The position numbers and the translations under genes were made by a program. A stretch of 18,623 bases of DNA from Armatimonadota bacterium. Its GTDB lineage: Bacteria; Armatimonadota; Armatimonadia; Armatimonadales; Armatimonadaceae. Location of the stretch: assembly GCA_043754515.1 (NCBI GenBank), contig JAYUUO010000021.1, forward strand, positions 1 to 18,623, given 5' to 3'. This document shows, piece after piece, positions 3,450 through 5,733 of the stretch; position 1 is the stretch's first letter; every line of letters starts with the position of its first letter. The notes under the pieces are model-generated. The model saw only the letters and a list, made by a program, of their open reading frames with translations. It was not told where the DNA came from and searched no databases.

Positions 3450-3610
3450 ATTTTGACAGTAGGATTTATGTGACGACTCCGCCAGATAAATCAGGCGGCT
3501 TCTGGTGCGAGGCGAACCTCACAGCAGAGAACGGAACGTTCTGTCCGCGTCTTCTCACGCGGCGCACAGAGCCACCTCTTACGTTAGCGCGTAACGGCTC
3601 CGTCCGAGCC
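3450..3610 (-). ncRNA. TnpB omega-RNA (reRNA)-like scaffold (about 3610-3470) plus flank-derived guide (about 3469-3450, AUAAAUCCUACUGUCAAAAU)
   Basis: GGCUCGGACGGAGCC hairpin, then CGCUAACGUA, then AGAAG plus the terminal hairpin and GAGUCGUCAC. This is the layout I recognise from IS605 tnpB 3' ends. Guide length and 5' boundary are inferred. Confidence 0.75.
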
Positions 3611-3984
3611 ATGATTTCGCCGAGGCGAACCCAGATGTTTAGAAAAAAACCCGTGTCTGTTGTCTCAATCGCATGGCAGAACCGCCTGAATCCGCGACGT
3701 AACTAACACTTTCATCATCGGGGCAGAGCGGCTCGCTTCACCTAAAATCGAGGAAATTTTACGCCGCTAAACAGCCTGTTGGCTTTCTTATTGACGACCT
3801 TATCGTACACCGAGAAAGGATGGAAGGCAAGGAGAAACGGCGCGGTAGACGCGCCTGAAGTCGCGCTTCGCGCGACGCGGCTCAGAGAAATCGTTCATGC
3901 GATTTTCTTGTATTCCACAAGACCGCAGCGGTTTGTGTGATTTCCCTGCCACCTAAAGGAGACACTCCCCTTGTCGCATTTATT
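3470..3984 (-). mobile_element. Non-autonomous IS200/IS605-family element (PATE-like, 515 bp, no intact tnpA or tnpB)
   Basis: The minus strand reads CCAT | AATAAATGCGACAAGGGGAG-TGTCTCCTTTAGGTGGCA ... GAAG-CCGCCTGATTTATCTGGCGG-AGTCGTCAC |. The left hairpin (3947-3964) and right hairpin (3479-3498) both have a TTTA loop and a T-T mismatch at the same position. Removing 3470-3984 restores AGGA-TTTAT-ATG in front of the Uma2 gene. Confidence 0.88.
3802..3830 (-). promoter_or_regulatory. Sigma70-type promoter inside the element, pointing toward the omega-RNA
   Basis: TTGCCT (3830-3825), 17-bp spacer, TACGAT (3807-3802). Predicted start at G3795 (GUCAAUAAGAAAGCC...). Confidence 0.65.
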
Positions 3985-4676
3985 ATGGCTACAGCGACTC
4001 TCGAAAAACATTCCGAAACGCAGACCGCGCTCCCGCCGTCGTTTTCGCACACGCCGTCCTTTATGACTTTTGAGCAGTTTCTCAGTTGGGCGAGTGAGGA
4101 CACTCCGCCGAATGGGTAGACGGAAGGGTTATATTTTTGTCCGCATCAAATCGGCATCAGCTTATCGTATCGTTCCTTCTATCGCTCTTCCGCTTGTGGA
4201 TAGACACACAAGAGGTGGGCGGTTAGGTGACGACGGCACCGTTCGTGATGCGTTGCCGCGTCGGGACACCGGGCCGCGAGCCGGATATCTTGCATCTGCG
4301 GGAAGAGAACTTCGGGCGACTGCGTGAGAACTACCTGGATGGTCCCGCCGACCTCGCCGTCGAGATCGTCAGCCCAGAGAGCGTGCGGCGTGACCGCATC
4401 GCGAAGTTCACGGAGTATGAGGCGGGCGGCGTGGGCGAGTACTGGATAATAAACCCCGCCGATCGCACCGCCGAGTTCTACGTCCGCGACTTCGGCTCGT
4501 CCTCCTCCCGCCGGGCACCTGTCGAGGGACTGACCGAGGAGAGCGGCGGCGTTTACACGTGCGCGATGCTGGGCGGTCTGGTCGTGAACGTCGCCTGGCT
4601 CTTTGCTACCTCGCTCCCGTCGCTGGCTCCGATCGTGCGCGCGTGGCAAGCCGTCCCCGAACCTAACACTCCCTGA
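3985..4676 (+). pseudogene. Uma2/DUF820 family PD-(D/E)xK endonuclease, disrupted
   Basis: MATATLEK...MTFEQFLSWASEDT, then a frameshift at about 4105 into AEWVDGRVIF..SNRHQ.., then an in-frame TAG at 4224-4226, then REPDIL..GPADLAVEIVSPES..RDRIAKF.EY..GVGEYWIINP. It is also separated from its RBS by the inserted element. Confidence 0.9.
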
Positions 4677-5055: not shown

Positions 5056-5733
5056 ATGAGTGTCTCACACAATCTTAGTCCCCCAAACGAACCGGAGGAT
5101 GCGTTCGGGCGACCCGAGGATGTGGACTTCGTCTACGATCAAGTCTTCCGGGCTACGCTGGACCGCCCCGGATTCGTCTCCATCCCGCTCGCGCCGGGCA
5201 CCGACTCGCGCGGTCTGCGGAGAGCGATGCTGGCCCTCGCGCGACAACTGTCCGAGCGTCACCCCGAACCGCTCGACTTGCAGTGGGTGTTGCGCTTCGA
5301 TCAGCAGATAACCAGCCGTTTCCACCGAGACGCCGCGCTAGATGAGTCGTATCTGCTCCTCGGCTAAGAGCCGTCGCCGGTAGTAAGCGAGGTCGCAATG
5401 GCAGACTTCTCCCGCGCGGCGCGAGATCTGGGCATCACGCCCGCCGAATACGTCGCCCTGTACAACCCGATGTTCCCCGCAAACGCCGACCGGCTGGGGC
5501 CATACATAACGCGCCTCGCGCCGTTCGATCCGCGCCTTGCCCATCTGCTCGTCATCAACAACAGCGTGTCGCGACCGGGCGTTTTCCATCAGGCGACTGT
5601 GCCGACACCCGTTTCCGGAGCGCGGCGGGTGATCAACTCCGTGCTTCTCGCGCCGAAGTCGCTCGCGGACGAGAAGGTGCCATCTACTGATCGCGAGGCG
5701 TTTCTCAGCACGGATACCGTTAGTGGCGGGTAA
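5056..5733 (+). pseudogene. Hypothetical protein with 2OG-Fe(II) oxygenase-like HxD...H...R signature, interrupted by a nonsense codon
   Basis: ORFs 5056-5367 and 5398-5733 are in one frame, separated by a single TAA (5365-5367): ...FHRDAALDESYLLLG*EPSPVVSEVAMADF...VFHQATVP...RRVINS. The TAA plausibly derives from a Tyr codon. Confidence 0.75.

Follow-up and report, generated by a model that had tools for sequence, protein, structure and literature searches.

An insertion between the ribosome-binding site and the start codon

The locus raises the question whether a mobile element found exactly between the Shine–Dalgarno (SD) sequence and the start codon of a gene came to lie there by chance and, if not, what lets such insertions survive. 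The window, the whole stretch of 18,623 nucleotides analysed here from an Armatimonadota genome (G000), contains a minus-strand insert of 515 bp (3470–3984) that sits between AGGA at 3461–3464, with its 5-nt spacer (3465–3469), and the ATGG at 3985–3988 of a Uma2 gene. The initial annotation had placed the insertion between SD and ATG and had read its CCAT target as the reverse complement of ATGG; the sequence and the boundaries of other copies agree with both statements. With near certainty, 3470–3984 is a non-coding, non-autonomous IS200/IS605 (IS605-type) element at the Uma2 ATG. Both tnpA and tnpB are absent from it, and G000 has one copy. On the minus strand the order is CCAT, the element start, GGGA at +16 to +19 and a hairpin, followed further on by GAAG, a second hairpin and the terminal TCAC. 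The features are listed below.

3450–3469, minus strand: host leader, which would serve as omegaRNA guide; by geometry it is antisense to the 5′ UTR of Uma2, no genomic target
3461–3464, plus strand: native weak SD AGGA; 5 nt separate it from the insertion
3470–3984, minus strand: IS200/IS605 element, 515 bp, no tnpA/tnpB, single in G000
3470–3473, minus strand: right-end cleavage tetranucleotide TCAC; dozens of relatives end alike
3479–3502, minus strand: right-end guide GAAG (3502–3499) and subterminal hairpin (3498–3479); supported by fold (z −2.5) and relatives
3503–3612, minus strand: omegaRNA-like scaffold, in common with tnpB-element 3′ ends, and an extra segment of about 50 nt in common with non-autonomous relatives in G008 and G009
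3683–3778, minus strand: conserved non-coding interior segment, also found in non-autonomous elements from a different genus (G008, G009)
3829–3834, plus strand: outward SD-like AAGGAG, −8.4 to −8.5 kcal/mol; about 150 nt from the ATG, displaced by extra hairpins
3880–3945, minus strand: extra segment of about 65 nt where relatives have the outer left-end stem's 3′ arm; joint 3879–3954 in run X5, depth 286
3947–3969, minus strand: left-end guide GGGA (3969–3966) and subterminal hairpin (3964–3947); the hairpin covaries in 45 relatives, window copy left out
3985–3988, minus strand: target tetranucleotide CCAT, the Uma2 ATGG start on the opposite strand; CCAT in 108 of 120 metagenome loci among the matches listed
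3985–4676, plus strand: broken Uma2 (PF05685) gene; frameshift near 4105, stop at 4224–4226

The element boundaries were set by comparison with other copies. CCAT lies immediately 5′ of the left end in all six copies that share the window left end (the window, G000:C283 and four in G003), and run X2 and X5 contigs of other copies diverge from the window sequence exactly past 3988. On the minus strand, the 20 nt beyond the right end form the predicted guide, the reverse complement of 3450–3469. This guide is indeed antisense to the Uma2 leader, as had been pointed out; any CCAT insertion at an ATG imposes that orientation by its geometry, so that the antisense relation adds no separate evidence. 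The right-end hairpin folded better than shuffled sequences (z −2.5), and the window copy's own left hairpin was not favoured in the minimum free energy (MFE) structure (z −0.1). The native AGGA is weak (−4.0 kcal/mol) and short-spaced: AGGA at 5 nt occurs in 8 of 1,397 G000 leaders, the mode being 9–10 nt. In G000 leaders generally, −10-like hexamers peak 6 nt upstream of the ATG, which suggests that many genes of this genome may be leaderless.

The interior segment at 3683–3778, about 95 nt long, comes after a promoter-like stretch and had no Rfam match; other non-autonomous relatives have different structured interiors. Elsewhere in the window, 5056–5733 is a single frame cut by an in-frame TAA at 5365–5367 (103 + 121 codons), and neither half matched Pfam.

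Relatives and family membership

Judged from sequence comparison, the element belongs to IS200/IS605 on all features that could be tested. A fixed 5′ tetranucleotide without target duplication was found (108/120 metagenome loci among the matches listed, 6/6 close copies, and a clean empty leader at cmk, described below), and subterminal hairpins with a guide tetranucleotide at the 5′ foot are present at both ends. Relatives with the same ends carry the transposon genes: in the congener G003 the same left end stands ahead of tnpA and tnpB, and a second copy of the left end in G000 (C283), which also ends in CCAT and TCAC, leads into a broken tnpB. The right end adjoins a putative omegaRNA scaffold, whose profile matches the 3′ ends of tnpB-bearing elements and of G000:C283. 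This scaffold recurs in G030, as a right-end piece, and in gene-free relatives from G008 and G009; the latter also have the interior non-coding segment. Gene-free, non-autonomous IS605-type derivatives are a known class (bioRxiv 2023.03.14.532601, PMC3597680).

An Rfam scan of the element gave no match at E ≤ 1, to omegaRNA families and group I introns alike, and the exact left-end 18-mer occurred at 11 loci in genome contigs, one of them a genuine end. IS605 ends follow a guide–target pairing rule, and guide and target covaried among the elements compared here (GGGA/CCAT, GAAA/TCAT and AAAG/TTAC). The guides of IS608 are described in PMC3597680.

The relatives varied widely in form. Minimal elements of 47–48 nt, with the left hairpin directly joined to the right end, were seen at L075, L092, L127, L128, L148 and L152. 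At L032/L177 (G066) a CCAT left end is followed by a non-coding region finishing in GTTGAC, which we take to recall HEARO/IscB omegaRNA, and the element at L023 (G003:C327) has, between its tnpA and tnpB, about 150 nt of inserted sequence bounded by terminal inverted repeats. In G008 (L319–L353), a recent non-autonomous family is represented by 15 left and 15 right ends and has no SD close by; an ORF resembling Uma2 follows two of its copies, L325 (identified by Pfam, as L186) and L333 (judged by eye). Run X5 contained related left ends up to depth 286 and one contig with a second right end beside the interior segment at 3741, a pattern that suggests a family of high abundance in which copies are nested or have recombined.

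Enrichment of insertions at host start codons

The short targets of IS605 elements are usually regarded as arbitrary. It is nevertheless very likely that surviving insertions of the CCAT lineage are strongly enriched at host ATG codons and that the window site is no coincidence. The left-end motif, which includes neither CCAT nor flank, matched at least 120 metagenome loci, and CCAT lay 10–16 nt upstream of it in 108 of 120 among the matches listed. The 12 motif matches without CCAT and duplicate sites were dropped, as were 26 of 125 sites with flanks below 243 nt. An ORF of 80 or more codons opened at 48 of the 99 usable sites among the matches listed, compared with 242 of 761 background ATGG sites. 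The far flank told the same story independently: a native SD was present at 29 of 46 right-ended sites (among the matches listed) vs 274 of 1,223 background sites. At 25 of 37 sites (among the matches listed) a long ORF had this ATG as its first, vs 121 of 982.

For a set with both ends defined, viral and tnpA-anchored loci were added, giving 52 usable of 64 sites (12 with flanks below 150 nt were dropped). By ORF heuristics, and with sites that are phylogenetically non-independent, 30/52 were start-like vs 94/888 in the background, about fivefold; 8/52 vs 538/888 looked intragenic, and 14/52 vs 256/888 fell in neither class. The 52 sites include the window, scored as non-start, and the cmk insertion, scored as start. 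Without the intragenic sites the start-like fraction was 30/44 vs 94/350, and start-like sites had an odds ratio of 11.5 when the model also took in AT content, GC and folding. The initial annotation had proposed that CCAT elements land on start codons and that the fraction of copies doing so be counted; the count over background ATGG/CCAT sites came out stronger than it had proposed. Insertion sites were also more weakly folded than the background (AT and MFE terms, p = 5e-7).

Subsets of the data behaved as follows. With one site per left-end cluster (85 clusters), 53% had long ORFs. The tnpA-anchored and viral loci gave a similar size (20/37, a count that holds five spurious TCAT calls); six regex false positives, five TCAT and one TTAC, were later removed. 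Viral loci were found by TnpA alignment and end motifs. At the new viral sites, long ORFs occurred at 8/16 vs 95/291 (p = 0.18) and start-like sites at 4/8 vs 22/303 (p = 0.002), two of these rows being one insertion. The single-genome test in G008 gave 7/15 vs 30/115 (p = 0.13), and TCAT elements gave 7/15 vs 53/207 (p = 0.13). G008 copies showed no excess of SD (5/15 vs 37/144). The family occurs in Thermus too; the Thermus records provided one usable left end, ahead of a 53-codon ORF.

Individual starts were checked against protein families and annotation. Pfam matched 27 of 76 ORFs behind insertions, and the profile start coincided with the ORF start for YdjM, LysR, FMN reductase, GT2, a baseplate hub and cytidylate kinase; two Pfam-matched ORFs (PIN and Uma2) look internal. 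On a Gloeobacter plasmid, a RefSeq-annotated start lies at the CCAT. Open reading frames preceded by insertions also include those of FBPase, single-copy cmk, an HslU-like AAA ATPase and, in phages, baseplate and tail proteins.

Another such case comes from the window's own genome. At L001:552–1860 (G000:C123), a TCAT IS605 element, its tnpB frame 379 codons long, is inserted at the ATG of cmk, which is single-copy and intact (229 codons) and whose orthologues start at the same residue. In the congener G001 the cmk leader is empty and matches the far flank of the G000 insertion. This leader is short and has no SD. The left end of the cmk copy has an outward AAGGAGG that is folded into its own hairpin, and this hairpin is terminator-like on the opposite strand.

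An outward SD beside a conserved outer stem

Many of the left ends themselves carry a candidate ribosome-binding site (RBS). AAGGAGG faces the host gene at about +51 to +58, and among the matches listed 37 of 115 ends have it within +45 to +90, as against 6.3 in shuffles. A strong outward SD (dG ≤ −9) was found in 49 of 144 ends, vs a shuffle mean of 13.8 and maximum of 21. Counted over distinct ends by target, it occurred in 49/137 CCAT, 1/15 TCAT and 2/38 TTAC ends; 88 of the 137 CCAT left ends, two thirds, have no near SD. The difference between CCAT and TTAC ends was seen when ends without a second hairpin in between were taken (43/71 vs 2/34), after GC matching (44/79 vs 2/21) and by cluster (15/55 vs 2/30), with TTAC controls that are AT-rich (GC 0.31 vs 0.54) and whose hosts may use SD less.

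The SD adjoins an outer stem that is conserved by pairing. In 45 SD-bearing ends, 7 of 7 pairs changed on both sides and 95% of positions were paired; 0/500 shuffles did as well, and slid controls were far lower. The tract reads as a perfect SD and keeps one position, while the adjoining stem letters vary freely. The far foot of this stem lies about 7 nt from the ATG. Folding would reduce the SD–ATG distance from 53 nt in the linear form to a median of 9 nt, a spacing partly built into the helix search. The SD is predicted to be mostly unpaired in 21 of 49 ends. In relatives, models place an SD and a start codon, separated by a conserved stem-loop, at a working distance after folding; the window copy has no such arrangement. 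The outer stem occurs in TTAC ends as well, and for this reason it is probably a transposition feature in second use.

The SD was as common at sites scored as starts as at the others (18/64 vs 18/63); an inherited SD need not track the start status of each site. Two other origins of the tract were considered. It is not the remnant of a divergent tnpA, as tnpA is co-directional with tnpB wherever it was found. An anti-SD guarding the transposase RBS is unlikely: in 96 elements, one of 31 long ORFs lying 4–9 nt past a −10-like box has an SD, so the motif has little to sequester. Outward sigma-70 promoters showed no excess over shuffles, and the single match in the window overlaps the ATG and is within chance; hence any mRNA reaching the host gene must cross 0.4–1.7 kb of antisense element.

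A proposed split ribosome-binding site and its alternatives

The explanation that best accounts for these observations as a whole, with a probability of about 0.5, combines CCAT targeting, a split RBS in the left end, escape from the purge of harmful insertions, and target access. In this scheme, read-through mRNA from the native promoter would cross the element, the stem-loop would loop out about 45 nt and rebuild the split RBS, and the protein of a gene hit at its start codon would be intact and expressed. Start insertions would escape the purge that removes intragenic ones, and the bias would gain from preferential insertion into open single-stranded DNA with little folding. In the window copy the outer stem would have been lost, leaving the SD-like tract 150 nt off while Uma2 decays. 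For the narrower claim that RBS replacement is part of the cause of the start enrichment, we would put the chances at even or slightly below.

More tentatively, this widespread IS605 lineage may be an RBS-replacing transposon, its left end a portable hairpin-bridged RBS with which it colonises gene-dense genomes and phages. If so, insertion would be possible even before essential genes, with the protein unchanged and its translation rate reset, and besides IStron splicing there would exist another way of making insertion harmless. A functional SD would explain persistence in compact genomes, would be a means to retune the translation of host and phage genes, and would constitute a natural 50-nt split RBS. 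Annotation calls for caution, as the leaders of genes beside such elements are shifted by 0.05–1.7 kb.

A less probable account dispenses with rescue and explains the pattern by access and purging. Here TnpA would prefer weakly folded single-stranded DNA at starts, perhaps at promoter-stalled forks; intragenic hits would be purged, start hits would fall mostly on dispensable genes, and the CCTCC tract would serve the element as a top-strand terminator or end structure, not the ribosome. The weak folding of the sites speaks for it, but the start-like excess stands with folding in the model and without the intragenic sites. Dispensability sits poorly with the genes actually hit, among them cmk, the HslU-like AAA ATPase, FBPase and the phage baseplate and tail genes, in open frames. 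A tract that serves the element is in line with the terminator-like fold of the cmk copy and with the absence of an association between SD and start status; against it stand the perfect SD fixed beside a freely varying stem and its near absence from TTAC ends of the same build. The SD-less families (G008 and TCAT) lean to starts as this account would have it, though not significantly (both p = 0.13). Promoters can induce fork stalls. According to PMC5027513, stalled forks and lagging-strand templates attract IS608. Access may contribute to the RBS-replacement reading too, given that the sites fold weakly and that IS608 favours stalled forks.

It is improbable that the transposon targets the RBS directly, with its ends pairing with or selecting the anti-SD a few bases past CCAT. 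The presence of a native SD in the far flank at 29 of 46 sites (among the matches listed) and the purine-rich GGAG/GAGG stretches in both ends would suit such targeting, yet 10 of the 30 start-like sites have no SD, the cmk leader is short and has none, and G008 shows no SD excess. Equally hard to credit is an enrichment produced by ORF heuristics, related loci and motif-based sampling. Most loci lack curated annotation, lineages overlap among samples and the G008 test was non-significant; against this, two independent flanks both give the signal, the search motif has neither CCAT nor flank, cluster resampling, the tnpA-anchored and viral loci and the new viral sites agree in size, and individual starts are borne out by Pfam, RefSeq and orthologues.

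The state of the Uma2 locus

In alignments with Uma2 orthologues and paralogues, the ATG at 3985 falls at their N-termini. The reading frame behind it is broken by a frameshift close to 4105, which the X5, X6 and X7 contigs do not show, and by a stop at 4224–4226, a place at which the differences listed for the covering X5 and X7 contigs, an incomplete listing, include none; both lesions had escaped the initial annotation. The 12 listed strain differences in Uma2 comprise five silent changes, six residue changes and one stop (in a single low-depth X5 contig). The G000:C281 (L017) Uma2 paralogue likewise has an in-frame TAG, and G002:C42 (L012) has two tandem Uma2 genes past ribE.

Contigs from three other studies, about 97–98% alike, span one or both junctions of the insertion. 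The joint of 3469 to 3985 expected of an empty allele was seen neither in the congeners nor in the contigs of any of the four runs compared, of which X2 may be the window's source and in which assembly loses rare variants. Relatives at the ribE-adjacent locus are element-free but have different leaders and a start codon without the following G; the exact empty allele is not recoverable from congeners because their leaders are too diverged. No intact IS605 tnpA was found in the G000 assembly (92.7% complete), in which four Y1 transposase matches were inspected.

That Uma2 is off in the window copy, as had been suggested, is plausible in view of the frameshift and stop; the reversibility ascribed to this state is unsupported. 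We give about even odds, along with the explanation as a whole, to the window copy being a stable knock-out of a dispensable, decaying Uma2 gene and not a switch. It does not have the outer-stem geometry, the 3′ arm being replaced by about 65 nt and AAGGAG lying 150 nt from the ATG. The lost geometry together with the decay of Uma2 would fit a loss of rescue, as well as simple dispensability.

A reversible switch, in which excision restores the gene and the guide silences paralogues, is very improbable: the insertion geometry permits it, excision by TnpA is scarless (bioRxiv 2023.03.14.532601) and TldR repressors use comparable guides on promoters (PMC10705468), but four runs hold no empty allele, the insertion is common to three other studies, no intact IS605 tnpA was found in the G000 assembly, the cognate tnpB at C283 is broken, Uma2 has further lesions and the guide has no targets. 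Among 30,039 CCAT sites in G000, the longest run of consecutive guide bases matched was no more than 5, and guide pairing upstream of two Uma2 paralogue matches (−11.9 and −9.0) was no better than the random-DNA median (−10.25). TnpB, moreover, cleaves the donor joint left by excision, as the same preprint describes, and would for that reason oppose lasting restoration.

Comparison with known systems

In full-text searches of a set of open papers, neither start-codon enrichment nor an outward SD in IS605 ends turned up. The element resembles IS605/IS1341-type elements and PATE-like non-autonomous derivatives (IS608, ISGst elements) in its left tetranucleotide target, its guide hairpins, the lack of target duplication and a putative right-end omegaRNA scaffold with the flank as guide; gene-free derivatives are known among them. 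It differs from known IS200/IS605 members in that CCAT is the opposite strand of an ATGG start, in the start enrichment and in the outward SD behind an extended left stem. IS1341 is said to boost its downstream gene via an outward promoter. That IS elements drive neighbouring genes is a general case treated in PMC3196728, and the likeness is that an element end affects the neighbouring gene; here there is no promoter excess, and the proposed signal would be translational.

TldR systems (PMC10705468) are alike in that TnpB-derived guides match promoter or leader DNA. Here, by contrast, no TldR-like protein is tied to the element and the guide has no second target, and we rejected a TldR system, as no CCAT site in G000 had more than 5 seed bases. 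IStrons, which join a group I intron to IS605 or IS607 (PMC4227781), may be alike in that the host gene is spared harm from an IS605-type insertion. In contrast to them, no intron was detected here, the element lies antisense before the ATG, and the proposed rescue acts at translation initiation, not by splicing; an IStron was rejected on the grounds that Rfam gave no match at E ≤ 1 and that the element is antisense to Uma2. A further parallel is the split RBS of T4 genes 38 and 25, where a stem-loop shortens the SD–start distance from 22 to 5 nt and from 27 to 11 nt, respectively (PMC3014915). The likeness lies in a stem-loop that brings a remote SD to working distance, whereas here the predicted change is from about 53 to about 9 nt and the SD, carried on a mobile element, would serve any gene hit.
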